Source: Gloeobacterales cyanobacterium
GTDB lineage: Bacteria > Cyanobacteriota > Cyanobacteriia > Gloeobacterales > PMM-0068
Assembly (NCBI GenBank): GCA_038245785.1
Contig: JBBRSB010000018.1
Span: 24,616 to 88,615 of the forward strand
Direction of reading: 5' to 3'
Length of the DNA: 64,000 nucleotides
A program made the position numbers and the translations under genes. Below are positions 3,137 to 27,167 of the stretch, in pieces; the first letter of the stretch is position 1; every line of letters begins with the position of its first letter. The notes beneath the pieces were generated by a model. It searched no databases. It was not told where the DNA came from and saw only the letters and a list, made by a program, of their open reading frames with translations.

Positions 3137-3169
3137 CCTCACAAGTTCCTCAAATTGTTTGTTTATCCT
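3137..3169 (+). promoter_or_regulatory. Direct-repeat box copy 1 (CCTCA-caagtt-CCTCA) + N11 + -10 element TATCCT, upstream of hsp20
   Basis: cctcacaagttcctca at 3137-3152; TATCCT at 3164-3169; same spacing as four other copies. Confidence 0.75.
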
Positions 3170-3237
3170 CAGAGTAGAGTTCATTGGGTTCTATACAGAA
3201 CCGATGACTCCTCTGCACTCCAAGGAGGTAAATCCTC

Positions 3238-3906
3238 ATGTCATTAATTCGTTGGCAGCCTTTTCATGAATTAGATAATTTACGAAATCAAATGAATCAT
3301 TTGTTTGAGGAGCTTGTCCATGGCGAACGTGAGATTCCATTCTTTCCTAAAGGTGAGATTGTTTGGTCTCCTGCTGTTGAACTAAAAGAAACAGAAACGG
3401 AAGTGATCCTGAAAGCTCAAATCCCTGGCATTGATGCCAAAGATCTCAATGTGGAAGTGAGCCAGGAATCTGTTTCAATTGCGGGAGAGCATCGAGAAGA
3501 GAAAAAGTCAGAAGAGAAAGGCTTTTTCCGTTCTGAATTCCGTTATGGGAAGTTTGAACGCTTAGTTCCATTGCCTGCCCCTATTAAAACAGACCAGATC
3601 CAGTCTGAATTCAAAAATGGTCTCTTGACCTTGACTATGCCGAAAATGGCACAAGCTGATCGGAAAGTAGTGAAAGTCAATCTAACGGAAGACACTCGAA
3701 AAGTTGCGACTGAAGCACGTCAGTATCAAGAACATCTGCAAGACACGATGACTAGCCGTTTGGCAGGAGATATAGATGCCCAACAAGCGTCTGACATTCA
3801 GCAAACCGCTAGAGAATTAGCGACGGAACAACATCAACAAGAAGGGCAAGTTCAGAAGAATATGCTGGAGCGCTCGGAAGAGAATCTAGCGAGTACTTCT
3901 TCTTAG
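3238..3906 (+). CDS. Hsp20/alpha-crystallin small heat-shock protein with ~70-aa C-terminal extension
   Basis: MSLIRWQPF..., SEFRYGKFER, FKNGLLTL, VKVNL; RBS AAGGAGG. Confidence 0.92.
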   Translation: MSLIRWQPFHELDNLRNQMNHLFEELVHGEREIPFFPKGEIVWSPAVELKETETEVILKAQIPGIDAKDLNVEVSQESVSIAGEHREEKKSEEKGFFRSEFRYGKFERLVPLPAPIKTDQIQSEFKNGLLTLTMPKMAQADRKVVKVNLTEDTRKVATEARQYQEHLQDTMTSRLAGDIDAQQASDIQQTARELATEQHQQEGQVQKNMLERSEENLASTSS

Positions 3907-3935
3907 AGAAAGGAGCCCCTGCTCTTTCTCTAAGA
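3901..3935 (+). terminator. Stem-loop at the hsp20 stop, probable terminator
   Basis: tcttagagaaa-g-gagc-ccct-gctc-tttctctaaga inverted repeat. Confidence 0.55.
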
Positions 3936-4174
3936 AGAGTAGTAAAAGGGTAGGGGCCGTTTATTTTAACTTTGAGGATTCACTATGTTGCCACAATATG
4001 ATCCTATTAAGCTTAAATTCCCCCTTGGGAAATACCTTTTTCAATTGCGCAGTAATTCTAGAATATGGAGTCCGATGGCATTTTGGTTTAAGTACAGAGT
4101 TGAACTCTTTGAAAAATGTTTGGCTCTGAACGCTTTGGAAGGAAAATATTAGATAGCCTCTAAAGGAGGCGAGT

Positions 4175-4582
4175 GTGGAGACTATCAGGAAGATAAATAA
4201 TGAACTGGCTATTGCTGGTAAAATCGGGCCAGAACAGCTTAAGCAGATTGCCCAGGAGGGTTTTAAATCTGTACTCAACTTGCAGATTCCAGAGGAAAAA
4301 GGCTTCCTGATCAATGAACAGCAGCAGGCTGAAGACTTAGGCTTGAAATATGTTCATATGCCTATTGCTCTTGAGGCTATTAATCATAATGAGATTACAG
4401 CTCAAGTCCTTCAGAAAATCGCAGAGCTAGCTAAACCTGTCTTAGTTCATTGCAGTAGTGATGTGCGGGCCGCTGCTATAGTTTTGATCTATATCTCTAC
4501 CCGCCAGGGAGTGCCCCTAGATAAGGCTTTTCAACAAGCAGAAAAACTGGGTTTATTTAGAGGATTAAGCCATATCTCCTAA
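4175..4582 (+). CDS. DUF442 / beta-lactamase-hydrolase-like phosphatase-fold (sulfur-transferase-like) protein
   Basis: GFKSVLNL and KPVLVHCSSDVRA (CX4R loop); GTG start with AAGGAGG. Confidence 0.8.
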   Translation: METIRKINNELAIAGKIGPEQLKQIAQEGFKSVLNLQIPEEKGFLINEQQQAEDLGLKYVHMPIALEAINHNEITAQVLQKIAELAKPVLVHCSSDVRAAAIVLIYISTRQGVPLDKAFQQAEKLGLFRGLSHIS

Positions 4583-4637
4583 TAGATATATTTGAGTCAT
4601 TTTTAATGCTAGATCAACTATAAGGAGGCGATAGATA

Positions 4638-5249: not shown

Positions 5250-5280
5250 CTCAATGAAAACTACTGGAGGACGCTCTGGA

Positions 5281-6580: not shown

Positions 6581-6613
6581 CTTCACAAGTTCCTCATTTT
6601 TGGCCTCTATTCT
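6581..6613 (+). promoter_or_regulatory. Direct-repeat box copy 2 (CTTCA-caagtt-CCTCA) + N11 + -10 element TATTCT, upstream of the sigma factor
   Basis: cttcacaagttcctca at 6581-6596; TATTCT at 6608-6613. Confidence 0.75.
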
Positions 6614-6667: not shown

Positions 6668-7543
6668 ATGGAAAAGAAAGACTCTGTAGGACTTTACTTA
6701 AGAGAAATTGGCAGGATTCCCCTGCTGAAGCCAGAAGAGGAAGTGGCGTTAGCTCGCCAAATTGCCGGGGGAGGACCGAGAGCGGACCGAGCCAAAAGTA
6801 AATTAGTTCAGGCAAATCTGCGTTTGGTAGTTTCGATTGCCAAGAAATATCTTAATCGGGGAGTGCCTCTGATGGACCTTGTGCAAGAGGGTTCTATCGG
6901 GCTAATACGCGCTGCCGAGAAATTTGAATATGAGCGCGGATTTAAGTTCTCCACCTATGCCTATTGGTGGATTCGTCAAGCGATTACCCGTGCGGTGGCC
7001 TCTCAATCGCGCACCGTCCGCCTGCCTGTCCACATGGTTGAAAAGATTAATCGAGTCAAAAAAATTCGCCGACAACTCGCTCAGGAACTTGGCCGCACAC
7101 CCATTGCAGAAGAAATAGCCCAGGCGCTAGAAATTGATGTCGAAGAACTAGGGGATATTACTCGTGCTTCTCGTAGGACTATCTCTCTGAATGTGAGCGT
7201 AGGTAAGGAAGAAGATACAGAGTTGATCCAGTTGATTGAAGACCATGAAGTCCTTCCTCCTGAAGAGCATCTAGATCACGAAGCACTTTGTTCAGAAGTC
7301 TATGAACTCCTCCATCGCCATCTCACTCCTCGGGAGCGAGACATTTTGGTGTTGCGTTTTGGCCTACTAGATGGGCAACGCCATACGCTAGACCAAGTAG
7401 GCCAGACTTTTGGCCTTTCTCGGGAGCGGATTCGACAGCTCCAAGCTAAAGCCTTCCGTAAACTTCGTCGCACGCGTAGTCGTCAGCGTCTCTATGAGTG
7501 GATTAACCCAGTCGCCCTTGAGGAATCAGCTTTTTCAGGCTAG
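6668..7543 (+). CDS. Group 2 sigma-70 factor (RpoD/SigA family, short)
   Basis: DSVGLYLREIGRIPLL, ANLRLVVSIAKKY, GFKFSTYAYWWIRQAITRA, SRERIRQ. Confidence 0.95.
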   Translation: MEKKDSVGLYLREIGRIPLLKPEEEVALARQIAGGGPRADRAKSKLVQANLRLVVSIAKKYLNRGVPLMDLVQEGSIGLIRAAEKFEYERGFKFSTYAYWWIRQAITRAVASQSRTVRLPVHMVEKINRVKKIRRQLAQELGRTPIAEEIAQALEIDVEELGDITRASRRTISLNVSVGKEEDTELIQLIEDHEVLPPEEHLDHEALCSEVYELLHRHLTPRERDILVLRFGLLDGQRHTLDQVGQTFGLSRERIRQLQAKAFRKLRRTRSRQRLYEWINPVALEESAFSG

Positions 7544-8249
7544 GAAAACAAGCTTTTTCCTGCGACAAAGAAGAAAGGCTAATTATACAAATTCCTATGC
7601 TTTGGTTATGAGCAGTCGCTGTATAGGTCCTGATTATCTCTGTAGAATTTGTTCACGGGGCGTTGCAGACGTTATTTCTCTCACCTGCTATAGGCGATTT
7701 TCAGGCACATCAAGTTAGTGTTTTTACTGCGTTGCTGTTCATTTTGTTTACTGCATGGCGCACTCAAGATTCTTCTGACGTTTGGCGGAACCTAAAGAAC
7801 TAATTATAGCTAATTTCCGAGTATTAGCGCTGATGCAATGAGATAGACTATCTCATGACCCACTGGAAGTTTTTTGCTGACGAGTAATTGATTTTGGCTG
7901 TCATCTGTTTATACGAATATTAACTGCAACTAACTTACAATACTAATTACTAGCTTGGATTGTGGGTGATTCATATATGCTTTCAATGAGAAAATAAAAA
8001 CATAGCTATGTATCGCACTATACACGCCAAATAGATTTATTAATGGTTGAGTATAAAACGAACTAGTGATGCTAACGCACTTTCTAAAGTTAGAATCAAG
8101 GAAAAGCGATCCTCACGTTATGAACCGCACCTATATGGAGAGTTTCAGTAGTTATTAATGACTAAACAGAGCTAATTTGCCTATCACATGTGTGTTTTAA
8201 CTTTGCCCGAACACTTGATTTCCTACGCTTAAGTTGTGAGCAGAAAGTC

Positions 8250-9926
8250 GTGGATAGACAGCATGAATCAAGATATTTTTCTAGAAGAGACGCACTCAAG
8301 TTAGCTGCTGTAGGTAGTGCCACCCTTTATGGAATAGGTGCATTTTTGAGACCTGCCTCAGCTCAAGTGCTTAAGGCTGATGCGTATCAAGCTCCTACCG
8401 TCCCATGGCTCCCTCAGCATGATCCTGACCTTTCACAGCGGGCCATGCAGCTTGCTGATCAACAGCAACAGCATCAATACAACTTTACTTATTTTCCGCC
8501 TTTGCCCCTAGTGGACAAAGTCCCACCAGCAGATCAGTTTACCTTGCCGTGGCAACAACTGGCCAATGCGATAGAAACAGAAAGGCGTTCCAATACCACT
8601 CAAGCAGGTCAAGCCAGAACCATAGCGAATCTCGATGATTATGCTGCTCTTTTTCCAGTGATTCCCCTGCCTCAAATCAGTAAGACTTTTCAAGAAGATA
8701 GTGTATTTGCGCGTATGCGGGTTGCTGGTCCAAATCCTCTAGTCATTGAGCACGTAATGGCCCTGGATAACCGTTTTCCTGTTACCAATGAACATTATCA
8801 ATCAGCGATGGGAGAAGTGGATTCCTTAGCAGTAGCTGGGCAAGAGGGGAGGCTCTACCTGGCTGATTACGCAATCTTCGATGGAGCGGCCAATGGGAGC
8901 TACGCTGCGGGGCAGAAGTATCTCTATGCACCCCTGGCCCTGTTTGCTGTGCCACGTCCAAACCAGCGTTTACGGTCGCTAGTCCCTGTCGCTATTCAGT
9001 GTGGACAAAAGCCCGGACCGGATAACCCTATTTTCACCCCAAAGAACGGTACAAACTGGTTGCTTGCTAAAACCATCGTTCAGATCGCCGATGCCAACTT
9101 CCACGAACTGGTCATCCATCTTGGCAGCATTCATCTGTTTATCGAGCCGCTGGTCATTGCTACCCAGAGGCAACTTGCTGCCCGTCATCCCCTTGGAATC
9201 TTGTTGCGCCCGCACTTTGAAGGAACTCTAGCCACAAACTTCCGCGCGGTCTTCGAACTAATCAATCCAGGCGGACCCGTGGATAGGCTTCTGGGGACTA
9301 CCCTCTATAGCTCGCTAGCCTTTGCGGTCGAAGGGGTTCGCAGTTATCCGTTCAATGACTCGATGCTGCCTGATACCCTCAAACGCCGTGGAGTCGATGA
9401 CCGCAATCTGCTGCCTGACTCTGAATTGCAAAACTGGTTGTCAGAACTACTATCGGTCAACGGGGGAAGAATGGTTGGTATTGGTCAAGACGGTCGCATT
9501 CAAACACAAGCGTACCTGATTGAAGCCACCACCCTGATCCTCTTTACTGCCAGTGCCCAGCATGCTGCTATCGGCACACCTCAGGGGTCTTTAATGACCT
9601 ATGCACCAGCTTTCCCGCTGGCTGGCTATTCTCCAGCACCCGTATCTAATCAGGGTGCCACCGAATCGGACTATCTCAGATTGCTACCACCCTGGCTCCA
9701 AGCCCAAGGCCAACTGAGTACCCTCTACTTGCTGGGGACGGTGGATTACACCCGACTAGGAAGATATCAAAGTGGATATTTCAGCGATGAACGAGTACGG
9801 CCAAAGCTAGAGCGTTTTCAAGCCCGCCTCGAGCGAATTGAAGCGGTCATTGGCCGGAGAAACCAAACGCGGCCCGCCTATGAGTTTCTACTCCCCTCTC
9901 AAATTCCCCAGACCATCCAATGGTAG
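8250..9926 (+). CDS. Tat-exported lipoxygenase-family protein with atypical ligands and an in-frame internal deletion (possibly inactive)
   Basis: Twin-arginine SRRDALK + ASA cleavage site; FARMRVAGPNP, WLLAKT, HELVIHLGSIHL, TASAQHAA; ends IPQTIQW. GTG 8250 preferred over the ORF-track start 8190. Confidence 0.85.
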   Translation: MDRQHESRYFSRRDALKLAAVGSATLYGIGAFLRPASAQVLKADAYQAPTVPWLPQHDPDLSQRAMQLADQQQQHQYNFTYFPPLPLVDKVPPADQFTLPWQQLANAIETERRSNTTQAGQARTIANLDDYAALFPVIPLPQISKTFQEDSVFARMRVAGPNPLVIEHVMALDNRFPVTNEHYQSAMGEVDSLAVAGQEGRLYLADYAIFDGAANGSYAAGQKYLYAPLALFAVPRPNQRLRSLVPVAIQCGQKPGPDNPIFTPKNGTNWLLAKTIVQIADANFHELVIHLGSIHLFIEPLVIATQRQLAARHPLGILLRPHFEGTLATNFRAVFELINPGGPVDRLLGTTLYSSLAFAVEGVRSYPFNDSMLPDTLKRRGVDDRNLLPDSELQNWLSELLSVNGGRMVGIGQDGRIQTQAYLIEATTLILFTASAQHAAIGTPQGSLMTYAPAFPLAGYSPAPVSNQGATESDYLRLLPPWLQAQGQLSTLYLLGTVDYTRLGRYQSGYFSDERVRPKLERFQARLERIEAVIGRRNQTRPAYEFLLPSQIPQTIQW

Positions 9927-9952: not shown

Positions 9953-10573
9953 CTATCTCGCTCTCACTGCTTTAGGCGCGGTTAGCACTACATAGTAGTA
10001 TTTGTAATAACTTCGGGGAGAGCAAGCTACCCCGATACCGATTTCTGAATGTTCAAGATAAAACGGATCCATCGCCAACAGATGAATTCGATGAGCAGGA
10101 GGATATACACCCTCATCGGCAATCAACTGATCAACCGCTTCAATGCCATTAGGAGCACCTGCCGCTAATGACTCTAGACTGTTGGATGCAGGATCTTCAG
10201 CATAATCAGCAGGTAGAGAATAGCCAGCGCGAATCACCCGTTGATTGGCACCTACTCCATCTGGATCGAAGTGAGAGACATAGTTGTCCTTAGCCATACG
10301 TTCAGCCGCTTGGCGAGCTATGGTAGCAAGCGGTTGATTCCAATGCAGGGCAGGAACAGGGCCACCAGGTAATTGAACCCCAAGTTTAGAAGCATAGTTT
10401 TTGGGCTCAGCCCGAAAATGATTCAGATAATCATAGGCTTGGACGGCTTCACGATTGGAGTCTATACAGGAATCGGCACGTGCTACTTCCTGGAGAAATC
10501 CAATCATAATGCAAGCAAAAATTACCCTCAGAAATAGATACTTCAGAGGTCTTTCTATGGATAAAAAAATCAT
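9953..10573 (-). CDS. Secreted CAP (SCP) domain protein
   Basis: Signal-peptide-like N-terminus; YLNHFR, MAKDNYVSH, HRIHLL, EIGIGVA. Confidence 0.8.
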   Translation of the reverse strand: MIFLSIERPLKYLFLRVIFACIMIGFLQEVARADSCIDSNREAVQAYDYLNHFRAEPKNYASKLGVQLPGGPVPALHWNQPLATIARQAAERMAKDNYVSHFDPDGVGANQRVIRAGYSLPADYAEDPASNSLESLAAGAPNGIEAVDQLIADEGVYPPAHRIHLLAMDPFYLEHSEIGIGVACSPRSYYKYYYVVLTAPKAVRAR

Positions 10574-10922
10574 AGGCTAGCGTCTTTAGAAGGATAGAGA
10601 TCTTGCGTTTGATCCAGATTGTGAAACTGCATCATTCGCTCTTGCAGGCAATGAGAAATTGGGTCTATTTTAATTGCTAGATCTACTTCATCCATAGGTT
10701 CTCTCTCTGAATACAGTGCTTCAGCCGTTTTATTAAAAAGATTGAAGTTATACTAAGCGAATTCTTAAGTGCTTAATATGAAGCGTTTATGAAGTTTCCG
10801 AAAAAACTAAAAAACATTTTCAGCAGTAGGTTTTATTTCATTTTTAGGGAACTCTATACTGCGCAAAACTCAACGGTCAAACTTAAAAAATAGCAGTTTT
10901 GCTCAGTGGAAGTTGCGATAGT

Positions 10923-10955
10923 CCTCACAAGTTCCTCAAATTGACGGTTTAACGT
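10923..10955 (+). promoter_or_regulatory. Direct-repeat box copy 3 (CCTCA-caagtt-CCTCA) + N11 + -10 element TAACGT, upstream of usp-osmC-PRTase
   Basis: cctcacaagttcctca at 10923-10938; TAACGT at 10950-10955. Confidence 0.75.
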
Positions 10956-10977
10956 GGAAGTAGAACTGGAGACGATT

Positions 10978-11496
10978 ATGTTTCAAAAGATTCTTGTAGC
11001 CGTAGACAACTCCGCCTCAGGCGAGTACGTCTTCCGTAAGGCTTTGGAACTAGCTAAGAAAACTGAGGCTAGCCTTATGCTTTTGCACGTTTTGTCCTCT
11101 GATGAAGAGGGCTATCCGGCAGTGCCTGGGTTTGATTTTGGGATAGGTGCCCAGGATGACGTGATGAGACTCTACTTGCAGCAGTGGCATGACTTTAGAG
11201 AACAAGGACTTGAGCTACTGCGGGCACGCATCTATGAAGCGACTGCAGCAGGGGTGAGTGCAGAATCCAATCAGGTGCCTGGGGATTCAGGTAAGGCTAT
11301 TTGTGAACAGGCACGTGCGTGGGGTGCAGACTTGATTGTGATCGGTCGTCGCGGCCGTTCTGGTCTTAGTGAACTCTTCCTCGGTAGTGCTAGCAATTAT
11401 GTCTTGCACCATGCTCATTGCTCGGTTCTGACGGTACAACCGCTCGTCCGTGTCCCTGATGAAGAGACTCAAACCGCACAAATGATGTCTATTTGA
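10978..11496 (+). CDS. Universal stress protein
   Basis: MFQKILVAVD; ADLIVIGRRGRSGLSELFLGSASNYVLHHAHCSVL. Confidence 0.95.
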   Translation: MFQKILVAVDNSASGEYVFRKALELAKKTEASLMLLHVLSSDEEGYPAVPGFDFGIGAQDDVMRLYLQQWHDFREQGLELLRARIYEATAAGVSAESNQVPGDSGKAICEQARAWGADLIVIGRRGRSGLSELFLGSASNYVLHHAHCSVLTVQPLVRVPDEETQTAQMMSI

Positions 11497-11505
11497 GGTG
11501 AGGCT

Positions 11506-11937
11506 ATGCAGGTCAAGGTTCAACATAAAGAGCATCTGCGATTTGAGGCAATGGCTAGGGGCCATCGTATTCTGGGCGACCAACCTCTGGAGAACGAGGG
11601 CGAAGACTCAGGAATGACGCCTACTGAGTGGTTCTTGGCATCTATTGGCGGATGTGTGGGTTTCTACGCCGTTAAGTACTGTCAGTCCAGAGGCTTAGAG
11701 GCCACAGGCCTTAGTGTGGATGTTTCTGCCCAGAAAACAACGGATATGCCTGTTCGTCTGGATGATATCCAGATTCAGGTAAATGTCCCCATAGTCTTAG
11801 ATGCTCACCACTACCAAGGGCTAGAAAGAGCGGTGGATGCCTGCTTAATTCATAAAACCCTGTCAAACCCGCCCCATACGACCATCCAGATTTCTACGTC
11901 TGTGGTTCAATCAGTCCAAGCACAAACCTCCCCCTAA
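11506..11937 (+). CDS. OsmC family protein
   Basis: DQP..NEGEDSGMTPTE..LASIGGC and C.IHKTL. Confidence 0.9.
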   Translation: MQVKVQHKEHLRFEAMARGHRILGDQPLENEGEDSGMTPTEWFLASIGGCVGFYAVKYCQSRGLEATGLSVDVSAQKTTDMPVRLDDIQIQVNVPIVLDAHHYQGLERAVDACLIHKTLSNPPHTTIQISTSVVQSVQAQTSP

Positions 11938-11992
11938 GCCCTTCGCAGCCCTAGTGCCAGCGAACTAGAATAAGAACAAAGTGGTGCATAAA

Positions 11993-12646
11993 ATGACTGC
12001 GCGATTCCGTAATCGGATTGAAGCAGGCCAATTACTAGCCCAAAAACTTACGGCCTATGCTTACCGTCCGGACGTATTGGTGTTGGGGTTGCCTCGGGGT
12101 GGAGTGCCTGTAGCCTTCGAAGTGGCTAGTGCTCTTCATGTCCCCCTGGACATCTGGTTGGTGAGGAAACTGGGAGTGCCAGGGCAAAAGGAACTAGCCA
12201 TGGGGGCTATTGCAACAGGGGGCATCCGAGTACTAAATCCTGAAACAATCTATTGGCTGCATATTGCTGAGCAGGACATTGCGCAGGTGGCCACGCAAGA
12301 ACAAAAGGAATTGGAGCGCCGTGAGCTTCTTTATCGAGGAAATCGCCCTGCTCCTGATGTGCGGAATCGGACCGTGATTCTAATAGATGACGGCCTAGCT
12401 ACAGGCTCAACCATGCGTGCAGCGATAGCTTCCCTTCGTCCACAACAGCCTGAACGAATCGTTGTCGCTGTTCCCGTTGCGCCTCCATCCGTGTACAGCG
12501 AATTCAAGACCGAAGCAGACGAAGTTGTCTGTCTGAGAACTCCTGAGCTATTCCATGCCATTGGTGCCTGGTACGAAGATTTTTCCCAAACCACGGATCA
12601 GGAAGTGCGTAATTTATTAGAGCGGGCTAGCCACGGAGTTTGTTAA
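11993..12646 (+). CDS. Phosphoribosyltransferase family protein
   Basis: [15 protein letters not shown] motif [13 protein letters not shown]. Confidence 0.92.
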
Positions 12647-12658
12647 TCAATGAGAATC

Positions 12659-12683
12659 TGACCTTCCCCCAATTTAGTGGACA
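12659..12683. mobile_element. Solo IS3-family-like terminal inverted repeat (scar)
   Basis: TGACCTTCCCCCAATTTAGTGGACA resembles IS3-family ends (TG start, C-run, GGACA); no transposase nearby. Confidence 0.45.
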
Positions 12684-12735
12684 TTCCCGAAGAGTCGATA
12701 ACTACTGAACTATCGATCGATTATTGGAGTTAAAG

Positions 12736-17620: not shown

Positions 17621-19421
17621 ATGAAATCAGAGCAGCAAGAGCAAGCTTTTGGAGATCTTCTAAACCATCTACAACAAGAGCGGGGATTCGATTTTACCGG
17701 TTACAAGCCCGCCAGTCTGAAGCGACGGGTGCTAAAACAAATGCAGACCCATCGCCTGGAAAATTTTGGCGAATACCTGGACTATTTACAGGTTCACCCT
17801 GAAGAATTCTCGCTGCTCTTCAACACCATTTTAATTAATGTGACATCCTTTTTTAGGGACCGTGAAGCTTGGTCTTATCTACAGAAGGAGGTTCTACCGC
17901 AACTGATTGCCGCCAAACCAGAGCAATCACCGATTCGAGTATGGAGTGCGGGGTGTGCTTCAGGAGAAGAGCCTACACGCTGGCAATTATTTTGACTGAA
18001 ATCTTAGGAGAAGCGGCATTTCGGCAGCGGGTAAAAATTTATGCAACTGATGTAGATGAAGAAGCCCTAGAGCAGGCACGTCATTATGGCTATCGTGCCC
18101 AAGACTTGGAGTCTATCCCTGAAGAATTGCAAGCGCGATACTTCGATGCTGGAGGGCAATATGCAGATCTTCGCCGCTCAGTCATTTTCGGTCGTCATGA
18201 CCTAGTCCAAGATGCTCCTATCTCCCGTCTCGATCTGTTAGTTTGCCGCAATACCCTCATCTATCTCAACACTGAGACACAGACCAAGATTCTGCGCCGA
18301 TTTCACTTTGCCCTCAATGACACAGGGGTTCTATTTTTGGGCAAGGCAGAGATGCTGCTGAGCCACGCAGACCTGTTTACACCTATCAGCCTGACCCATC
18401 GGATCTTCCGCCAGGTATCGAGAAGCAATGGACGCGAATTTCTTCTAGAATTACCTCGGACAAGCCAAACCGCCCGTAAAACTCTTGAGTCTTGCCTGCG
18501 CTTACAAGAGTTGGGCTTTGACGCTGTTCCCTCGGCCCATCTCATCATCGACTTCAGCGGTAAGCTCGTGCTTGCTAATACCCTCGCTCAGACGATGTTC
18601 AGCATTACGGCCATGGATCTGGGCCGTCTTTTGCAAGATTTAGAAATTTCTTACCGTCCTCTAGAATTGCGGTCTTGTATCGAACAGGTATATCAGCAGC
18701 ATCGCCTAGTTCTGGTTCAAAATGTGATTTGGGATGTGCCGGGCAAGAGCAGGCAGTATGTGGATGTACAAATCAACCCCCTGGAAGAGGAGAATGGCGA
18801 AATCCTCGGGATAAGTGTCTTTTTTATCGAGTCAGCCGCGCCCACGAACTTCAAGAGGAGCTTCAGCACGCTAACCAGGAACTGGAAACTACGAATGAGA
18901 AACTACAATCGACCAATGAAGAGCTAGAGACTACCAACGAGGAACTGCAATCGACCAATGAAGAACTGGAAACCATCAACGAGGAGCTCCAGTCCACTAA
19001 CGTAGAATTGCAAACGATTAATGATGAGGTGCAGCAGCGTACAAACGACCTGAATCGGAGCAATGCCTTCTTGAATTCTATTCTGGCTTGCTTAAAGGCT
19101 GGCGTTATAGTGATTGACAATAGCTATAAAATTCTCAGTTGGAACAACGAAGCTGAAAATTTGTGGGGTTTACGCGCGCAGGAAGTTCAAGAGCAGTTTC
19201 TCTGGGCACTCGATATTGGCTTGCCTCTTGAACAGCTTAGGGAACCGTTGCGTAACTGCCTGACAGGGGCAACAGACCGACAAGAAAGCGTGATTTCAGC
19301 TACTAATCGCCGGGGCCAACCTATCCACTGTCGCCTCACGTACAATCCTTTAATGGGGCACGAGAAGGATATACAAGGTGTCATTATCTTGATGGAAGAG
19401 ACAGAGCTATGTAAACCGTAG
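17621..19421 (+). pseudogene. cheR: CheR methyltransferase-PAS-coiled coil-PAS protein split by two 1-bp deletions (~17970, ~18830)
   Basis: Three overlapping ORFs join as WSAGCASGEE|AYTL...CRNTLIY...FI(D)|VSRAHELQEEL...; true pseudogene or assembly error. Confidence 0.85.
18873..19028 (+). repeat. Degenerate 21-bp tandem repeat encoding heptads NEELETT/NEELQST
   Basis: About seven units (e.g. aatgaagagctagagactacc, aacgaggaactgcaatcgacc) in the CheR coiled coil. Confidence 0.8.
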
Positions 19422-19434: not shown

Positions 19435-21927
19435 ATGGGTTTAGAGCAACAAATTCAAGGGGTCCAACAGCGGTTTGAGGCCATTCGACAGAATGCAGAG
19501 AATGCATCAACTCCGTCCCAGAATTTGCTGGAAGAAGCAATCACCGAACTGGGTATTACTCTAGAAGAGTTACAGGTCACCGCAGAAGAGTTATACCAGC
19601 AAAATGCGGAATTGCTGGCGACGCGCGAAGACCTAGAAGCAGAGCGCCAGCGCTACCGGATGCTCTTTGAGTTAGCGCCTGACGGCTACCTGGTGACCGA
19701 TGCCAAAGGCGTCATTCAAGAAGCGAACCGTGCATCGGAAATACTGCTCAACGTACCCCGATCCCTACTAATAGGCAAACCGCTTGTTGTCTTTGTTTCT
19801 CCAGCAGACCGTCCTTCTTTTCGAACTCAACTGACCCAACTAGAGGTATCAGCCGTTCAAGCTATGGACCCAACCAGTAAGCACTTGGATAAGGAGCAAG
19901 ATTGGGAAATACATATCCAACCACGGCAAGGGAAAGCCTTTCCGGTAGCGGTCTCTATTTCTGTAAGGTATACTCCCGCAAGCAAGAAGATAGCGAGCAT
20001 CCACTGGCTAATTCGTGACGTCACCGAGCGCGTACAGGCCAATACCCTTTTGCAGCAGAGTGAGCAACGCTATCGCACGTTGACTGAAGCAGTCCCAAAC
20101 ATGATCTGGGTGGCAAATGCTGAAGGTTTTAGCTACGACTTCAACGAGCCATACCAAGAGTACTTGGGGATGACCATTGAAGAAATCCGAGGTCACGGAT
20201 GGATAGAGGCTGTCCATCCCGATGACAGAGAGGTAGCTCTGACGAAGTGGCAAAAGTCTCTACAAAACAGTACCCCTTTTGAGGCAGAGTATCGGTTGCG
20301 GCGAGTAGACGGTGTTTACCGTTGGCATGTTGTGCGGGGGTTACCTGTCTATGACGACCAAAAGGTTGCCCTGTGGATTGGTTCATGTACAGATATTGAC
20401 GATTTAAAACAAATGGAGGCGGCGCAGGGAGAAATTGGAGAACGGCTCACCTTAGCGCTGGATGCCGCAAATTTGGGCACATGGGATTGGGATATGCAGA
20501 CCAATCGGATAATTTGGTCAGGGCACCACAGTGACCTATTCGGCTTACCCAGCGGCACGTTTGGCAACTCTTTCGCCTCCTTTATAGACTGTGTCCATCC
20601 TGAAGACCGTCCGCATATTCTGGAAGCGATTGAGTCAGCGAAGCAGGATAAAAGTTCCTATGCCTCTGATTTTCGGGTGATTTGGCCGGATGGTAGCCTT
20701 CACCATGTATCAGGAACAGGCAAGTACTACTACAACACAGAAGGGGAACCCATAAGGATGCTTGGGGTGGTGATGGACACCAGTAATCGTAAAAAGGTAG
20801 AAGAAACCCTAAAGAAATTCAGTAAAGAATTAGAAATCCGAGTTCAAGAGCGTACACAACAACTCCAAGAAAGTGAGGAGCGCTTTCGTCACGCCTTCGA
20901 CAATAGCGTCGCGGGCATAGCCTTAGTCGCCTTAGGCGGTCGCTGGCTAAAAGTCAATCCTGCTTTGTGTCAGCTTTTAGGTTATTCAGAGCAAGAATTG
21001 CTCAGGTTGGACTACCAGACCGTTACCCATCAGGATGACCTGGAGCAGTCCCTTAATGAGGTGTACCAACTTCTGACCAGCGAGATTGCCAGTGCCCAAA
21101 TCGAGAAACGTTTTTTGCATAAACAGGGACACTCTGTTTGGGTGATTTGTAGCATGTCGATGGTACGGGATGAACAGGGGCACCCTCTATATATTGTCAA
21201 ACAAATTCAAGACATCTCCGAACGTCGTGCGATAGAACAAATGAAGAGCGAGTTTATCTCCGTAGTCAGTCACGAACTGAGGACCCCCCTTGCTTCTATT
21301 CGTGGATCTTTAGGACTATTAGCTTCCGGTGTACTCGATGATGAACCTCTCACCACCAAGCAGATGTTGAGCATTGCAACCCATGAAGCTGAGCGCTTAG
21401 TACGCTTAGTCAATGACATCCTGGATTTGGAACGGTTTGAAGCTAGCAAAGTCGTGTTAGAGAAGCAGTGGTGCGATGCAGCCACTTTAATGCAACAAGT
21501 GGCTGAAGTGATCAAACCTCTGGCGGAGGAAAGCAAAATTACGGTTTCCCTTCTCCCTCAGTCTCATTCAGTACCCGTTTGGGCAGCTCCTGACCGACTG
21601 GTGCAAGTACTGGTCAATCTCTTGAGCAACGCAATCAAATTTTCTCCTAGAGAAAGCACCGTAACCCTAACGGCCCAAAATCAGATAGACCGAGTTTTGT
21701 TTCAGGTTCAAGATCGAGGAAGAGGAATCCCCGCTGATAAAATAGAGACTATCTTTAGACAGTTTCAACAGGTCGATGCCTCAGACGCGCGCGATAAGGG
21801 AGGTACAGGGCTGGGTTTAACCATCTGTCGCAACATCGTTCAGAAACATGGTGGACGAATCTGGGTCGAGAGTGCGTTAAGGAAGGGGAGTACGTTTTAT
21901 TTCACCTTACCGATTCCCTTGGAGTAG
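19435..21927 (+). CDS. Multi-PAS sensor histidine kinase with N-terminal EEL-rich coiled coil
   Basis: LEELQVTAEELYQQNAEL, four PAS/PAC units, SHELRTPL, NLLSNAIKF, GTGLGL. Confidence 0.95.
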   Translation: MGLEQQIQGVQQRFEAIRQNAENASTPSQNLLEEAITELGITLEELQVTAEELYQQNAELLATREDLEAERQRYRMLFELAPDGYLVTDAKGVIQEANRASEILLNVPRSLLIGKPLVVFVSPADRPSFRTQLTQLEVSAVQAMDPTSKHLDKEQDWEIHIQPRQGKAFPVAVSISVRYTPASKKIASIHWLIRDVTERVQANTLLQQSEQRYRTLTEAVPNMIWVANAEGFSYDFNEPYQEYLGMTIEEIRGHGWIEAVHPDDREVALTKWQKSLQNSTPFEAEYRLRRVDGVYRWHVVRGLPVYDDQKVALWIGSCTDIDDLKQMEAAQGEIGERLTLALDAANLGTWDWDMQTNRIIWSGHHSDLFGLPSGTFGNSFASFIDCVHPEDRPHILEAIESAKQDKSSYASDFRVIWPDGSLHHVSGTGKYYYNTEGEPIRMLGVVMDTSNRKKVEETLKKFSKELEIRVQERTQQLQESEERFRHAFDNSVAGIALVALGGRWLKVNPALCQLLGYSEQELLRLDYQTVTHQDDLEQSLNEVYQLLTSEIASAQIEKRFLHKQGHSVWVICSMSMVRDEQGHPLYIVKQIQDISERRAIEQMKSEFISVVSHELRTPLASIRGSLGLLASGVLDDEPLTTKQMLSIATHEAERLVRLVNDILDLERFEASKVVLEKQWCDAATLMQQVAEVIKPLAEESKITVSLLPQSHSVPVWAAPDRLVQVLVNLLSNAIKFSPRESTVTLTAQNQIDRVLFQVQDRGRGIPADKIETIFRQFQQVDASDARDKGGTGLGLTICRNIVQKHGGRIWVESALRKGSTFYFTLPIPLE

Positions 21928-21935
21928 AAATTGCT

Positions 21936-22325
21936 ATGTCCACCAAGTGCATTCTCTTGATTGATGATGAAAAAGACCTGAGTGCGGTGATTCAGACTTG
22001 TCTAAGAAAATTGGGGGGTTGGAAAGTACTGATGGCTCAATCAGGCCACGAAGGACTACAAAAAGCCGGAACTGAGCAACCTGATGCCATTTTGCTCGAT
22101 GTGATGATGCCGGATATGGATGGCTTTACCGTTCTAAGTAATCTCCAGGGGAATCCTGCGACCCAAAACATCCCCGTCATTTTGCTAACAGCCAAGGTTC
22201 AGCCTGCAGACCATCATCAATATGCCCTGTTAGGCATCGCCGGAGTGATTACCAAACCCTTCGACCCCTTGAAAATATCTCACCAAGTAGCGGAGAAGCT
22301 AGGCTGGTCCTCAGAAGCAAAATGA
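21936..22325 (+). CDS. Single-domain response regulator (paralogue of 2768-3136)
   Basis: EQPDAILLDVMMPDMDG and IPVILLTAKVQ shared with the first copy. Confidence 0.95.
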   Translation: MSTKCILLIDDEKDLSAVIQTCLRKLGGWKVLMAQSGHEGLQKAGTEQPDAILLDVMMPDMDGFTVLSNLQGNPATQNIPVILLTAKVQPADHHQYALLGIAGVITKPFDPLKISHQVAEKLGWSSEAK

Positions 22326-22398: not shown

Positions 22399-22431
22399 CC
22401 TCATCATTTCCTCACTTTTCCCCTTTACCTT
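22399..22431 (+). promoter_or_regulatory. Direct-repeat box copy 4 (CCTCA-tcattt-CCTCA) + N11 + -10 element TACCTT, upstream of DUF2949-crp-trx
   Basis: cctcatcatttcctca at 22399-22414; TACCTT at 22426-22431. Confidence 0.7.
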
Positions 22432-22485
22432 TGAACAACCATCTCCGAATCTCACATGTTCGCTCATAGGAAGGCTAAGGTACTC

Positions 22486-22701
22486 ATGACATACGAGAAC
22501 TACCTCCAGTTTATTCACTTCTTACAGGAAGAATTAGCAATTTCCACTCGTGCTATTGCTTGTGCGGAGCGTATACGTAAAAGGATCTCACCCTATGAGA
22601 AGAATCAAAGCTCTCACCTACTTTCCATGATTCTTTGGCAACATGGGCTGATGGACATTGAACAATTGAATCGCAGCTTTGCCTGGTTAGAAGGAGCCTA
22701 A
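22486..22701 (+). CDS. DUF2949 family protein
   Basis: FIHFLQEELAIS...LSMILWQHGLMDIEQLNRSFAWLE. Confidence 0.85.
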   Translation: MTYENYLQFIHFLQEELAISTRAIACAERIRKRISPYEKNQSSHLLSMILWQHGLMDIEQLNRSFAWLEGA

Positions 22702-22761
22702 TGCTAGATAGTTTCTACAAATCAATCCACTCTGAACTTATTTCTACAATGCAGGCATTCT

Positions 22762-23400
22762 ATGTACTCTTCTCCTCCTACCCTCACCCTGGCTGTTGAC
22801 CTGAAAGGACGAGTATTTAAGCAACAGGAACGGATTCCACTTCATGACAGCTATCTCTGGAAGATCAATGAAGGTACGGTTCGTACGCTCACATGGAGTA
22901 AAGAAGGAACCTTAGTTACTCTAGGGCTTTGGGGTCCAGGAGATGTCATTGGCAAACCCCTATCTAGGACAAATCCCTACCTGATTGAATGTTTGGAAAC
23001 TGTAAGAGTTGTGGCTGTGCCCACGTACCTGTGGAATCGAGAACTCGATGCCATACTCCTTCATGCTCAATATGTAGAAGAGCTACTCACTATTGTTCAC
23101 AATGAAACAATCTATTTGCGCTTATTGGAATTCTTAATTTGGCTTGCTAACAGGTTTGGTTTTGAAGTTGAGCAAGGAAGGTTAATTAATCTCCAATTGA
23201 CCCATCAAGAAATCGCTGAAACGATTGCTGCAACACGAGTAACCGTGACCCGTGTTCTTGGAGTTTTAGAACAGGAAGGTAAGCTCTTTCGGAAGAATAG
23301 AAAATTAATTTTGCCCTACTCAGTTTATTGTTCTAAGACGATCGCAGTCGAAAGAAGTCGCCCAACTGGAAGTTATTTAACTGAGGGAAAACAGCTATGA
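22762..23400 (+). CDS. Crp/Fnr family transcriptional regulator (copy A)
   Basis: LGLWGPGDVIG; HTH LTHQEIAETIAATRVTVTRVL. Confidence 0.92.
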   Translation: MYSSPPTLTLAVDLKGRVFKQQERIPLHDSYLWKINEGTVRTLTWSKEGTLVTLGLWGPGDVIGKPLSRTNPYLIECLETVRVVAVPTYLWNRELDAILLHAQYVEELLTIVHNETIYLRLLEFLIWLANRFGFEVEQGRLINLQLTHQEIAETIAATRVTVTRVLGVLEQEGKLFRKNRKLILPYSVYCSKTIAVERSRPTGSYLTEGKQL

Positions 23401-23747
23401 GCACACCAGTTAATTTAGCAAATAGCGAATGGCAGGAAATGTATACTTATAAGGGGCTCACTGTAGTCAATTGTTGGGCATCTTGGTGTGCCCAGTCTCA
23501 GAATATTATCCCTTTAGTTGACAAACTAGCTGATGAGTATAAAGACCGCATCAAAGTGCTCAAACTCAATATAGATGAGAACCAGGCAATAGCTAGTGAA
23601 CTTGGGCTCCTGGGTCTTAATAGCCTTCCTATTACTTTTATCTTCAAATCCGGCAAATTAGTGGAAACGGTAGCAGGTTTGGCTCCCTACGAAGCTTTTC
23701 GTGAAGCCATTCGCAAACATCTCAGGGAAGGAAAGAGCGTGCATTAA
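23397..23747 (+). CDS. Thioredoxin-like protein, monothiol WCAQS (copy A)
   Basis: NCWASWCAQS, KLNIDEN, SLPITFIFKSG. Confidence 0.85.
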   Translation: MSTPVNLANSEWQEMYTYKGLTVVNCWASWCAQSQNIIPLVDKLADEYKDRIKVLKLNIDENQAIASELGLLGLNSLPITFIFKSGKLVETVAGLAPYEAFREAIRKHLREGKSVH

Positions 23748-23769: not shown

Positions 23770-24523
23770 TCAAGATACTGCAATCTGACCGATATCTGCG
23801 GGTGTTAAATATGCTTGCAGCACTTGACCATCTAGAAACCAAATAATGCGACGGCTGCGACGGGCCATATCGGGTTCATGGGTGACCATCACTACAGTAA
23901 TTCCTTCCTCGTTCAGCGCTGAAAAAATGTCCATAACCTCCTGAGAAGTGCGTGAGTCTAAAGCTCCGGTCGGTTCATCCGCCAGTAAATAATACAGGCC
24001 GATTGACGATGGCACGAGCGATAGCAACCCGTTGCTGTTGGCCTCCAGAGAGTTGGTTCGGTTTGTTATTGATGCGATTTCCCAATCCCATACGTTCTAA
24101 TGCTTCCATCGCTTTTTGGCGACGTTCTTGTGTATGAATCCCTGCATAGACCATTGGTAACATCACATTTTCTAGGGCTGTAAGCTGTGATAAGAGATGA
24201 AATTGTTGGAAAACAAAGCCGATTTTCAAATTGCGAATATGGGCTAAAGCTTGGTCATCTAACTGTGACACATCCACTCCATCCAGTTCATAGTGACCAG
24301 AAGTAGGTTTATCGAGACAGCCAATGATATTCATCGCCGTAGACTTGCCTGAACCAGAGGCCCCCATAATTGCGCAGTATTCCCCTTTTCCTATGGTCAA
24401 ATTGACATCAGAGAGAGCTTTTACTTCCGTATCTCCCGAACCATATAGCTTATAAATATGCTCTAGACGAATAATAGGCTGTTCATTGGTTTTTGATAAC
24501 GCTGAACTATTGTTACTTTCCAT
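23770..24523 (-). pseudogene. MacB/LolD-type ABC ATP-binding subunit, frameshifted (+1 T) near 23988
   Basis: Walker A GASGSGKS and [14 protein letters not shown] in ORF 23975-24523; [11 protein letters not shown]...MVTHE continues in ORF 23770-24027. Confidence 0.85.
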
Positions 24524-24526
24524 CCT

Positions 24527-25744
24527 TCAAATCCCTCTCAAAGCAACAATCGGATCTAACTTTGCCGCTTGTCGTGCTGGAAATACGCCAAAGAAAAGAC
24601 CAATACCTCCAGAAACGGTCAAGGAAATCAAGATAGCCAGCGGAGACACCGTTGCTTTCAAAGGACTAAGAACACTGATAAGCAAAGTTCCTCCAGCACC
24701 AAGCAAGGTGCCGATTAAGCCTCCTACGGCAGATAGAATGACGGCCTCAATCATGAACTGAATCAAAATATCCTGTTGCGAAGCGCCAATCGCTTTGCGC
24801 AATCCAATTTCATGGGTACGCTCGGTCACTGAGACCAGCATGATATTCATAATGCCAATCCCCCCGACCAAGAGGGAAATACCAGCAATCGCACCCAACA
24901 TAATCGTTAGTCCGCCAGTAATATTACCAATAATGTCTAGAACATCTTTTTGGGTTTGGACATTAAAGTCATCTTCAACCGTGATTTTATGTCTCAGGCG
25001 CAGTAGATTGGTAATCTGAAACTGGGCTGCTCGGATACTCGATTCATTTTTAGCAGAGGCTGCAATAAACGTTAGCTCAATGCCATAGGGAGAAGTTCTG
25101 CCCACAATCCGGCTAGCCATCGTGCTCAAAGGGATATAGGCTATATCATCTTGATTATTGCCTAGGAAAGCGCCTTTAGCTTTCATCACCCCAATCACTA
25201 GAAAACTGACATTCTTAATCCGAATCTGTTGTCCTATTGGGTTTTGATTACCAAAAAGTTTCTTGGCCAATTCTGAACCTAAAGCTACCACTCGGTCGTC
25301 TCTTTTGACATCATCATTGGAGAGAAAACGCCCCCTAGCCACATCAAAGCTACGAACCGTGAGGAAACTTGGAGTTGCTCCTACCAATCCAGTATTGGTA
25401 GTTTTATTGCGGTATACGACCAATCCGCTAGCATTAACCTGCGGGGCAACGGATGTGATGGAAGGAACCTCCGCCGCAATAGCATCTGCATCGGCTAATA
25501 CTAAAGTTTTCGGCAGATTGGTGGTATGTCTCCGAGAAGTTTGGGTCCCAGCCGTTATAAACAATACATTCGGACCCAAAGATTCAAACTGTTCTGCCGC
25601 TAATCTTTGCGCCCCTTCTCCAATACCAATCATCGCAATCACAGAGGCAATACCAATAATAATGCCCAACATCGTAAGGCTACTGCGTAGCTTATTTGCT
25701 ATCAGCGTCGTCGATGCCATCTTGATGCTTTCTAAAATATCCAT
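24527..25744 (-). CDS. MacB/FtsX family ABC permease
   Basis: RSSLTMLGIIIG, GIGIMNIMLVSVTERTHEIGLRKAIGA, PARQAAKLDPI. Confidence 0.95.
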   Translation of the reverse strand: MDILESIKMASTTLIANKLRSSLTMLGIIIGIASVIAMIGIGEGAQRLAAEQFESLGPNVLFITAGTQTSRRHTTNLPKTLVLADADAIAAEVPSITSVAPQVNASGLVVYRNKTTNTGLVGATPSFLTVRSFDVARGRFLSNDDVKRDDRVVALGSELAKKLFGNQNPIGQQIRIKNVSFLVIGVMKAKGAFLGNNQDDIAYIPLSTMASRIVGRTSPYGIELTFIAASAKNESSIRAAQFQITNLLRLRHKITVEDDFNVQTQKDVLDIIGNITGGLTIMLGAIAGISLLVGGIGIMNIMLVSVTERTHEIGLRKAIGASQQDILIQFMIEAVILSAVGGLIGTLLGAGGTLLISVLSPLKATVSPLAILISLTVSGGIGLFFGVFPARQAAKLDPIVALRGI

Positions 25745-25748
25745 ATAC

Positions 25749-27071
25749 TTACTTACTGCTTGTTTCTAACTCTTTAGGCAGGTCTACAAATACCCGTTCA
25801 CCAGGTTTTACTCCTTTAAGAATCTGCGTTTGATTACCAATACTGGAACCCAGGGTGACGGGCCGGAATTGGGCTTTCCCTTTTAAATCGGGAATCATTA
25901 CTCCGGTTTGCCCTTGCTGGGTAACCACAGCCACCGTAGGAATGACCAAAGAATGATTTAACTGTTTACCAAGAAACGTGGCATCCACATTCATGTGTGA
26001 GCGCAACAAGACAAGACCTGTTTTAATCGTTACCCGCACTTCAAAGGAGGTGACATCCTGTTGAACTACGGCCTCTGGTGCAATCAGCCGGACTTGTCCC
26101 CGAAACGTTTTATCTGGATAGGAATCCGCCACAATTTCCACAGGCTGACCAAGCTTGACTTGACTAAGATCTACCTCAGGCACCTTGGCTAGGACTTCTA
26201 GACCATTGGCGATGGCAACAATCGAGGTTGAAGTGGCCGAAGAAGTGCTGGAAGCGGTTGTGGTTGGGGTGACGAAAGCGCCAACTGTGGCATATTTCTG
26301 GGTCACCACTCCGGAGAAAGGGGCACGGACTAAAGTATCTTCCTGCTGTACTTCGATAGCCTGTAATCGCCCCTTAGCTTCAGCAACAGCGGCGGCAGCT
26401 TGAGCAATTTGTTCTGGTCGCGTGCCCTTGCGCAACAGCTGTAAACGCTGCTCTGCCTCACGCACACTGGCCTGGGCGCGCTCCAGTCCTGCTCTCGCCG
26501 TTCGCTCTTCATTGAGCACGGCATCTAATTGGTCACGGGAAATAGCACCCTCTGAAGCCAGTGCTTGGTTCCGGTTGACCCGTTCACGGGCTAAATTCAA
26601 ACGAGCTTGAGCATCGGCCACTTGCGCTTGATTTTGAACTACATTTGCCTGAGCTTGCTCGATTTCCTCAGGCCGATTCCCCACCTGCAGTTCTTCTAAA
26701 CGAGCCTGGACCTGAGCGATATTTGCCTTTGCTTGCACCCGTTGCGCCTCAATGTCTCTGCTCTCCATTCGGGCAATCACTTCCCCCGACTTCACCTTGT
26801 CCCCTTGCTCCACATATAGCTGGGCAATACGACCCGACGTTTTGGGACTCAAGTTCACAGTCTGAATGGGAACGACCGTGCCACTTTCGGTAATCCGTAC
26901 CGCTAAGTTCTTCTCCTGCACTGGAACGGTTAGCGCATTGATATCTAGGGGCGCAGTGGCCCTAAGCACAGCCAAGTAAATCGCTATCGATAATCCCGAC
27001 AGCCCAACTAGCGCCAAGGCAATCAACCAGAGGGTCGATTTACTGACTTTGCCTATAAGAGGAAGTTGCAT
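25749..27071 (-). CDS. HlyD/MacA family periplasmic adaptor
   Basis: N-terminal TM; lipoyl halves GRIAQLYVEQGD and VRAPFSGVV; long coiled coil. Confidence 0.93.
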   Translation of the reverse strand: MQLPLIGKVSKSTLWLIALALVGLSGLSIAIYLAVLRATAPLDINALTVPVQEKNLAVRITESGTVVPIQTVNLSPKTSGRIAQLYVEQGDKVKSGEVIARMESRDIEAQRVQAKANIAQVQARLEELQVGNRPEEIEQAQANVVQNQAQVADAQARLNLARERVNRNQALASEGAISRDQLDAVLNEERTARAGLERAQASVREAEQRLQLLRKGTRPEQIAQAAAAVAEAKGRLQAIEVQQEDTLVRAPFSGVVTQKYATVGAFVTPTTTASSTSSATSTSIVAIANGLEVLAKVPEVDLSQVKLGQPVEIVADSYPDKTFRGQVRLIAPEAVVQQDVTSFEVRVTIKTGLVLLRSHMNVDATFLGKQLNHSLVIPTVAVVTQQGQTGVMIPDLKGKAQFRPVTLGSSIGNQTQILKGVKPGERVFVDLPKELETSSK

Positions 27072-27134
27072 TGGAGGAGCAATCCTAAAATCAGGGAAAT
27101 CTTTGCCTAGAGATATTCCCTCTTATGTAAGTTC

Positions 27135-27167
27135 AGACTAGATCTCAAAATTGAAGAACTTGTGAGG
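27135..27167 (-). promoter_or_regulatory. Direct-repeat box copy 5 (CCTCA-caagtt-CTTCA) + N11 + -10 element TAGTCT, upstream of the ABC exporter operon
   Basis: Reverse complement of 27152-27167 is cctcacaagttcttca; reverse complement of 27135-27140 is TAGTCT. Confidence 0.75.

Follow-up and report, generated by a model that had tools for sequence, protein, structure and literature searches.

A conserved TTCCTCA direct-repeat promoter element in cyanobacteria, with a candidate RcaC-type regulator and a candidate haem-PAS sensor

What could place the genes for a small heat-shock protein, a group-2 sigma factor, a universal stress protein, a Crp-family regulator and an exporter under one control? 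The question is raised by a stretch of 64,000 nucleotides from a Gloeobacterales cyanobacterium (NCBI GenBank assembly GCA_038245785.1, 5.0 Mb in 255 contigs), which covers positions 24,616 to 88,615 of contig JBBRSB010000018.1 (G000:C18:24616-88615 in our numbering) and is referred to here as the window; positions are counted from its first letter unless a contig is named. An initial annotation, made from the letters without database searches, had proposed that five promoters in the window share a 16-bp box of the form CYTCA-N6-CYTCA, followed after 11 bp by TAnnnT. The observation of a shared promoter box is real. All five boxes lie where they had been placed, between genes and oriented toward the next one, and TAnnnT follows each after exactly 11 bp, with the hexamers as first read. 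They are given below with their scores from the position weight matrix (PWM) described further on.

3137 to 3169, plus strand: hsp20 promoter; box CCTCACAAGTTCCTCA at 3137-3152, 11-bp spacer, TATCCT at 3164-3169; PWM 27.0
6581 to 6613, plus strand: sigma factor gene promoter; box CTTCACAAGTTCCTCA, 11-bp spacer, TATTCT; PWM 27.0
10923 to 10955, plus strand: usp operon promoter; box CCTCACAAGTTCCTCA, 11-bp spacer, TAACGT; PWM 26.7
22399 to 22431, plus strand: DUF2949-crp-trx promoter; box CCTCATCATTTCCTCA, 11-bp spacer, TACCTT; PWM 23.6
27135 to 27167, minus strand: exporter operon promoter; box CCTCACAAGTTCTTCA (27167 down to 27152), 11-bp spacer, TAGTCT (27140 down to 27135); PWM 27.4

The loose pattern CYTCA-N6-CYTCA matches the window seven times against 0.70 expected, a count that none of 100 shuffles reached, and the spacer CAAGTT within the box is common to four of the five sites. 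The sixth loose match (16192-16207, minus strand) lies inside a coding region and is probably due to chance. The seventh, at 10779-10794 on the minus strand, is a box-like repeat (CTTCATAAACGCTTCA) with TAAGAA at +11 and a PWM score of just 12.3, lying 205 nt ahead of a CAP-domain gene (9953-10573) and divergent from the usp box; as a genuine site it is weak and doubtful.

The genes that had been named as targets of the five promoters are upheld by Pfam:

3238 to 3906, plus strand: hsp20, 222 amino acids (PF00011)
6668 to 7543, plus strand: sigma-70 family factor of group-2 type with regions 1.2, 2, 3 and 4, 291 amino acids (Pfam)
10954 to 13830, plus strand: operon Usp-OsmC-PRTase-MOSC-DUF302 (Pfam)
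22456 to 23747, plus strand: operon of DUF2949, Crp-family regulator and thioredoxin (Pfam)
23975 to 27071, minus strand: operon of HlyD-type adaptor, MacB/FtsX permease and ABC ATPase (Pfam)

For the sigma factor, the NCBIfam likeness is to the cyanobacterial RpoD/SigA subfamily, below cut-off.

The extent of the element in the genome was examined with a box-only PWM built from 14 seeds, which were chosen by eye among 66 loose genome matches. The scan returned 208 matches scoring 12 or more, with a sharp break in the scores. Among the top 21 (score of 19.3 or more), TAnnnT stands exactly at +11 in 18 and TAnnnC in one, a statistic that is partly circular since 13 of the 14 seeds had been chosen for having a -10; the six non-seed matches among them all carry a -10 at +11 (five TAnnnT, one TAnnnC). 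Intergenic enrichment, which the initial annotation had named among the checks on its proposal, is evident: crude open reading frame (ORF) calls cover 84% of the genome, and 18 of the top 21 matches fall in the 16% outside, while the weaker matches lie mostly in coding DNA. The genome total comes to about 19 box promoters, and these cluster, with six on C18 (one of them just before the window), six on C8 and four on C2.

In its full form the element is TTCCTCA-N4-TTCCTCA, with a period of 11 bp, and leads into an AATT-rich stretch; 11 bp lie between its end and the TAnnnT -10, and it covers the -35 position, the bases of which belong to the box. Direct repeats with an 11-bp period in place of the -35 element are the geometry of class II activation by the PhoB/OmpR family, and the likeness that had been drawn to it holds good, with tandem repeats 11 bp apart, lying over -35, at a fixed distance from the -10. 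In the E. coli PhoB pho box and CreB cre-tag, tandem repeats 11 bp apart likewise stand in for the -35 and stop about 10-11 bp short of the -10, although half-site, signal and regulon differ. Judged by its layout, the box is a regulon-type promoter element of class II geometry. One of the genomic copies, at C16:93940 on the minus strand (L002:5700-6000, G000:C16), stands in a duplicated segment that repeats the promoter, leader and 5' coding part of the sigma-factor gene. In an alignment read by eye, this copy has a mean column identity of 79% over the alignment and contains an in-frame stop, and on that reading it would be a decayed duplicate of the sigma-factor region; the box in it is still intact and points today at YHS/DUF2933, ICMT and amine-oxidase genes.

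The element is genuine, of ancient origin and rigid in its architecture. In a sample of the class comprising 401 genomes from 167 genera, the pattern of box, spacer and TAnnnT occurs in 113 genomes and 70 genera, and the reversed-pattern control gives no match in all 401. The same class-wide scan did not find it in 13 relatives of the same order, in family f4 (0 of 46, small genomes) or in family f6 (0 of 19), and showed it to be rare in family f7 (3 of 46 genomes). Named genome records hold at least 122 stretches with the pattern, and among the 80 titled matches listed, 77 name cyanobacteria of many genera, two read 'uncultured bacterium' and one is a Fimbriimonadaceae metagenome-assembled genome. 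The free flanks are conserved in 122 distinct instances, with T at -2 in 63% and at -1 in 77%, and therefore both half-sites read TTCCTCA; the AATT after the box is kept at 66, 68, 86 and 96% per position. When boxes were sought in five other genomes without the -10 condition, TAnnnT stood at exactly +11 in 38 of 48, and the reversed control gave 0. All six genomes of family f30 (G058, G191, G207, G333, G376 and G396) carry the same two variant boxes, CTTCATAATTTCCTCA and CTTCATAAGTTCTTCA, each with a -10, and these may be a related site served by another paralogue.

The box appears undescribed in the searchable open literature, subscription papers, including the original RcaC L-box papers, being beyond that scope. 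The 16-mer gave no literature match, and for its reverse complement or its parts of 12-13 letters there was no cyanobacterial paper among the matches listed; literature on anoxia and microoxic regulators and on RcaC homologues likewise turned up nothing functional.

What, then, do these promoters serve? Beyond the window, boxes in this genome precede a second hsp20 with a hibernation factor (HPF); pyruvate kinase; a HoxW-like protease with HypA and an ADP-forming acetyl-CoA synthetase; and a TPR gene with HoxF, adjoining HoxE and pyruvate:ferredoxin oxidoreductase (PFOR). Others stand before a P-type ATPase, a 2-hydroxyacid dehydrogenase, an HlyD-ABC exporter, amine oxidases, an alternative oxidase (PTOX) with two Usp genes, and an SQR-like oxidoreductase with an RND pump. 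In other genera the downstream gene was taken, by a crude rule, as the longest ORF starting within 450 bp of the box, and 76 such ORFs were classed by Pfam: seven HSP20, five PFOR, four Usp, eight small BLH/PTP-like phosphatases, three PFK, three radical SAM, two protoglobin and two HlyD proteins, together with single cases of HypA, a HoxE-type protein, an NrdG-like protein, Hsp70 and D1 protein, and 25 without a Pfam family. Among the targets scanned with Pfam in this genome and elsewhere, no phycobiliprotein or bilin-reductase domain turned up. The gene content reads as a low-oxygen and fermentation set joined to a stress set. The initial annotation had spoken of a stress regulon with a sigma/Crp second tier, and a sigma factor and a Crp-family gene are indeed among the targets; the set is, however, broader than a general stress set, because it has fermentation, hydrogenase and low-oxygen content across genera and is linked to a FixL-like haem-PAS kinase, which is taken up below.

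We turn to the protein that might read the box. The genome has 12 OmpR-family genes, and just two of them are near boxes, both on C18 and both built on a REC-wHTH-HPt module:

G000:C18:22134-23189 (ahead of the window by about 1.4 kb, with a box 0.5 kb away): favoured regulator, REC-wHTH-HPt, 351 amino acids
14897 to 16759, plus strand: hybrid regulator, REC-wHTH-HPt-REC-REC, 620 amino acids, paralogue of the favoured regulator

The two are 44% identical by BLASTP and 46-47% identical over the aligned first 350-360 residues. For the 351-residue protein, NCBIfam ranks the RppA, PhoB and CreB models top, all below cut-off. The case for this protein comes from other genomes, for which phyletic and linkage counts were read by eye from class-wide tables. 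Its orthologues (57-63% identity) are encoded within 5 kb of a box in G024, G365, G183, G282, G274, G401 and G316, as are more distant relatives in G298, G116 and G389, and the genomes with such box-linked regulators span nine families, including the window's own, and at least nine genera. The box-linked proteins elsewhere have the form REC-wHTH-HPt-REC(-REC), followed by GGDEF or by PAS-HisKA-HATPase-REC, and the recognition helix A[VI]RTHIK[GC]LR is kept in all of them. Outside the genus, 24 genomes have a best regulator match below 1e-70, and 22 of these (all but G173 and G310) carry the box, whereas over the whole set it is in 110 of 398; the 13 relatives of the same order have neither the box nor a close orthologue of the regulator. 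Taken together, these observations argue that the box is likely the binding site of the RcaC-type REC-wHTH-HPt regulator encoded by the 351-residue gene. The initial annotation had picked the winged helix-turn-helix of 14897-16759 for binding tests; this is the less likely of the two paralogues, and differs at two positions of the recognition helix.

In G282, G274 and G024 (L133, L134 and L136), the box-linked regulator ends in GGDEF in place of the kinase, which suggests an output or input of cyclic di-GMP type in the same protein.

The nearest known counterpart is the RcaC system of type III chromatic acclimation (Fremyella diplosiphon, Synechococcus PCC 7335). RcaC, a protein of REC-OmpR domain-HPt-REC architecture, binds the L-box TTGCACA-N4-TTGCACA. 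Its regulator includes the same REC-wHTH-HPt module, the L-box has the same 7+4+7 direct-repeat layout, and five of the seven half-site positions match (TTCCTCA against TTGCACA). The half-site had initially been held to be unlike the known cyanobacterial boxes; this holds for HLR1, the SphR pho box and the CcaR G-box, none of which is known to match the box, but the RcaC L-box is related. In the RcaE-RcaF-RcaC phosphorelay there is, furthermore, an upstream kinase with a single-domain receiver, the place that the kinase and receiver genes of the window would take. The L-box pattern itself occurs in 23 of 81 Nostocaceae-type genomes (family f33), with 35 matches against one for the control, and these matches stand upstream of bilin reductase, phycobilisome and phycobilisome-lyase genes. 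In G436, an L-box directly follows a gene for a 662-residue REC-wHTH-HPt-REC protein that is 50% identical to the 351-residue candidate; its recognition helix reads VRSHIRRLR, whereas the candidate has VRTHIKGLR. Since the two sites share the 7+4+7 layout and five of seven letters, and since an RcaC-type gene lies beside the L-box in G436, the TTCCTCA box and its regulator look like a paralogue of the RcaC/L-box pair of regulator and site.

The two systems also differ. The RcaC regulon consists of phycobiliprotein genes, whereas that of the box joins fermentation and hydrogenase genes with stress genes; RcaC receives its signal from a bilin photoreceptor, while the sensor linked to the box is a predicted haem-PAS kinase; and the candidate, a REC-wHTH-HPt protein, is without the C-terminal receiver of RcaC. 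According to the accessible part of PMC8256508, RcaC in its phosphorylated form binds promoter L-boxes and turns on pcyA and cpc2, and an rcaC homologue, all5323, is given in a table in the accessible part of PMC12282138.

Other cyanobacterial regulators with known or proposed sites were compared as well. As described in the accessible portion of PMC13079394, the H box of Hrr1 in Nostoc flagelliforme consists of two 11-nt repeats of AGGAATTTACM, and Hrr1 activates a sigB-type gene; close Hrr1 homologues occur mostly in Nostoc, and the signal is hydration. The likeness to the present element extends to the OmpR-type protein, to a pair of 11-nt direct repeats with AGGAA in each, which is TTCCT on the other strand, and to a sigB-type target, but the Hrr1 repeat and AGGAACTTGTG differ at 4 of 11 positions. 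The accessible part of a review (PMC13421787) gives GTNCGGK as the proposed Rre1 motif and AAMAWCTCYYWCCCC as that of RppA. The proteostasis regulon of Hik2/Hik34-Rre1 also has chaperone genes and a group-2 sigma factor among its targets. As the regulator of the box, Rre1 was set aside, GTNCGGK as quoted there being unlike the box and Rre1 being of LuxR/NarL type; the RppA motif and the Hrr1 H box, in the form those sources give, do not match it either.

If the 351-residue protein reads the box, what does it report? Two sets of kinase and receiver genes in the window bear on this:

786 to 2771, plus strand: candidate sensor kinase, REC-PAS(FixL-like haem-PAS)-PAS-HisKA-HATPase
2768 to 3136, plus strand: single-domain receiver directly before the hsp20 box, candidate relay in the RcaF position
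19435 to 21927, plus strand: second kinase, PAS x3-HisKA-HATPase
21936 to 22325, plus strand: second single-domain receiver, directly before the box at 22399

The PAS of the first kinase matches the haem domains of FixL (E 1e-22 to 1e-24) and DosP, and its proximal His and the following Arg-containing strand align with those of FixL; as in sensors of the FixL type, a PAS with proximal His is joined to HisKA-HATPase. The same PAS shows 63-70% identity both to the domain built into the regulator orthologues of G183, G401, G436 and G365 and to that of the kinase encoded right after the regulator orthologue of G024; the proximal His is kept in all five of these related domains. In Nostocales the FixL-like PAS is fused into the regulator itself. 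This fusion ties the window kinase to the regulator family, and kinase 786-2771 is likely a haem-PAS sensor, as predicted from its sequence, for the box regulator. The known partner of FixL in rhizobia, FixJ, is of LuxR type, whereas the partner here would be an OmpR/RcaC-type regulator. No clear haem-PAS match was found for the second kinase (19435-21927). The two single-domain receivers of the window are 59% identical, and the order of PAS histidine kinase, single-domain receiver and box promoter occurs twice in it (786-3136 and 19435-22325).

On the basis of this material we propose that a dimer of the REC-wHTH-HPt regulator (G000:C18:22134-23189) would bind the two half-sites head to tail and recruit RNA polymerase as PhoB does, or as RcaC does at the L-box. 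Phosphate would reach the regulator by way of the haem-PAS kinase (786-2771) and the single-domain receivers (2768-3136 and 21936-22325), and the regulon would come on under low oxygen or a related redox signal. Its output would comprise fermentation and hydrogenase genes, small heat-shock and universal stress proteins and exporters, with a second tier formed by the group-2 sigma factor and the Crp-family regulator. That the box is a conserved cyanobacterial element bound by an RcaC-type regulator, which would activate when the haem-PAS kinase reports low oxygen, seems to us on balance slightly the more probable state of affairs; the binding protein, the phosphorelay and the low-oxygen signal are suggested by linkage, by fusion and by likeness to RcaC and FixL.

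A number of observations weigh against this proposal. A search of sequencing runs listed one DNA run that contains the stretch and no RNA run. There is no box in the 157 bp upstream of the 351-residue regulator gene, and therefore its position could mean membership of a stress island and need not mean control. In only 9 of about 36 genomes with both listed is the regulator within 5 kb of a box; elsewhere it is distant or on another contig. The f30 genomes, six of six of which have the two variant boxes, show a best regulator match of only E 1e-33 to 1e-51, and G116, with 10 boxes, has just a 51% match, while several genomes that lack the box have REC-wHTH-HPt paralogues at E of about 1e-50 to 1e-66. 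A single genome can have as many as about ten paralogues of the family, which makes orthology by E-value rough, and related genomes are not independent. The 351-residue protein lacks the C-terminal receiver or receivers not just of RcaC but of its own orthologues. Last, the low-oxygen signal would have to be drawn from two things, FixL sequence likeness and gene content.

It is possible, though unlikely, that the box is bound by some other factor, namely an OmpR-family regulator from among the other ten or a protein related to Hrr1, and that the RcaC-type genes are mere neighbours or targets. Such a reading would accommodate the f30 genomes, with their variant boxes and no close RcaC-type orthologue, and the many genomes in which regulator and boxes are unlinked; the H box, as given in the accessible part of PMC13079394, also shares the TTCCT core, and Hrr1 activates a sigB-type gene. 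However, none of the other ten OmpR-family genes is on a contig with any of the 19 boxes, the H box in that source is off at 4 of 11 positions, Hrr1 homologues are described there as mostly from Nostoc as against a box found in 70 genera, and the repeated linkage and the kinase fusion favour the RcaC-type family over other factors.

A little less probable again is binding by the hybrid regulator 14897-16759, alone or with its 351-residue paralogue. The hybrid is of the same family and has the same N-terminal module as the favoured regulator, lies 4.4 kb from the box at 10923, and has an architecture nearer to that of RcaC and of the orthologues in other genera. Its helix, however, reads AVNTQIKGLR against the A[VI]RTHIK[GC]LR of all box-linked proteins, it is just 43-47% identical to the box-linked regulators, and in five genomes with the box its best match is no closer than 46-50%, being in four of the five the same box-linked protein.

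Far less probable than either is that the box is an upstream promoter element of an alternative sigma factor, such as the one encoded behind it, and works without an activator. Both a sigma-70 family gene and its decayed copy do carry the box, and the -10, a TAnnnT that is C-rich in its centre, is atypical. A half-site repeated unchanged after 11 bp is nevertheless the mark of a dimeric factor, the half-sites are off a workable -35 distance (from the -10 it is about 12 bp to the end of the proximal copy and about 21-22 bp to that of the distal copy), and the sigma factor 6668..7543 has ordinary RpoD-type regions 2 and 4. Chance matches, or copies of a mobile or duplicated promoter segment without shared regulation, can be dismissed almost entirely: C16:93940 is a true duplicate of the sigma promoter region, but the remaining sites share nothing past the box, the spacer bias and the -10, the genes behind them are unrelated, the pattern recurs in 70 genera while the control yields no match, and the window shuffles, the PWM scan and the class-wide scan already contradict such an origin.

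The proposal that an RcaC-type regulator reads the box under a haem-PAS sensor invites comparison with a well-known system. In Mycobacterium tuberculosis, the haem kinases DosS and DosT act with DosR to turn on many usp genes, alpha-crystallin/hsp20 and anaerobic metabolism. The resemblance would be one of function, and analogous, as DosR is of NarL/LuxR type, with another site and a non-homologous output domain. We consider it only slightly less likely than not that many cyanobacteria share a dedicated oxygen pathway of this kind, from haem-PAS kinase through phosphorelay and RcaC-type regulator to TTCCTCA repeats, and thence to hydrogenase, fermentation, hsp20, usp and a sigma/Crp tier, as a counterpart of the DosR regulon. 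Were that so, a cyanobacterial counterpart of the mycobacterial dormancy regulon would have had its sensor, regulator and DNA site all identified from sequence.

The element bears on anoxia sensing and on the induction of hydrogenase, PFOR and fermentation genes beyond the Synechocystis model. The regulators of anoxia and fermentation named in the accessible part of PMC11368403 are cyAbrB2, LexA and SigE. What is offered here is a sharply defined cis-element present in 70 of 167 sampled genera, one candidate regulator family and one candidate haem sensor. The proposed assignment would mean that the RcaC-like complex regulators, a large and unstudied family, serve another function in addition to light-colour acclimation, and would supply a natural low-oxygen-inducible promoter for cyanobacterial engineering.

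Some further features of the window may be recorded. The usp ORF as listed (10954-11496) begins with a GTG at 10954 that overlaps the -10 hexamer, while the Pfam match, starting at residue 9, agrees with an ATG at 10978, which would leave a leader of about 16 nt and is the more plausible start. Between the sigma factor gene and the usp operon lies a lipoxygenase-domain gene (8190-9926, 578 amino acids), a type uncommon in bacteria. The region 16885-19421, between the hybrid regulator and the second kinase, encodes a CheB methylesterase, a CheR methyltransferase-PAS protein and a further PAS ORF, and looks like a methylation module attached to the two-component cluster, with no chemoreceptor gene apparent in the vicinity. 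At 27233-27825, in divergent orientation to the promoter of the exporter operon, a small ORF is followed by a PemK/MazF-like toxin gene, and the two are likely a toxin-antitoxin pair.

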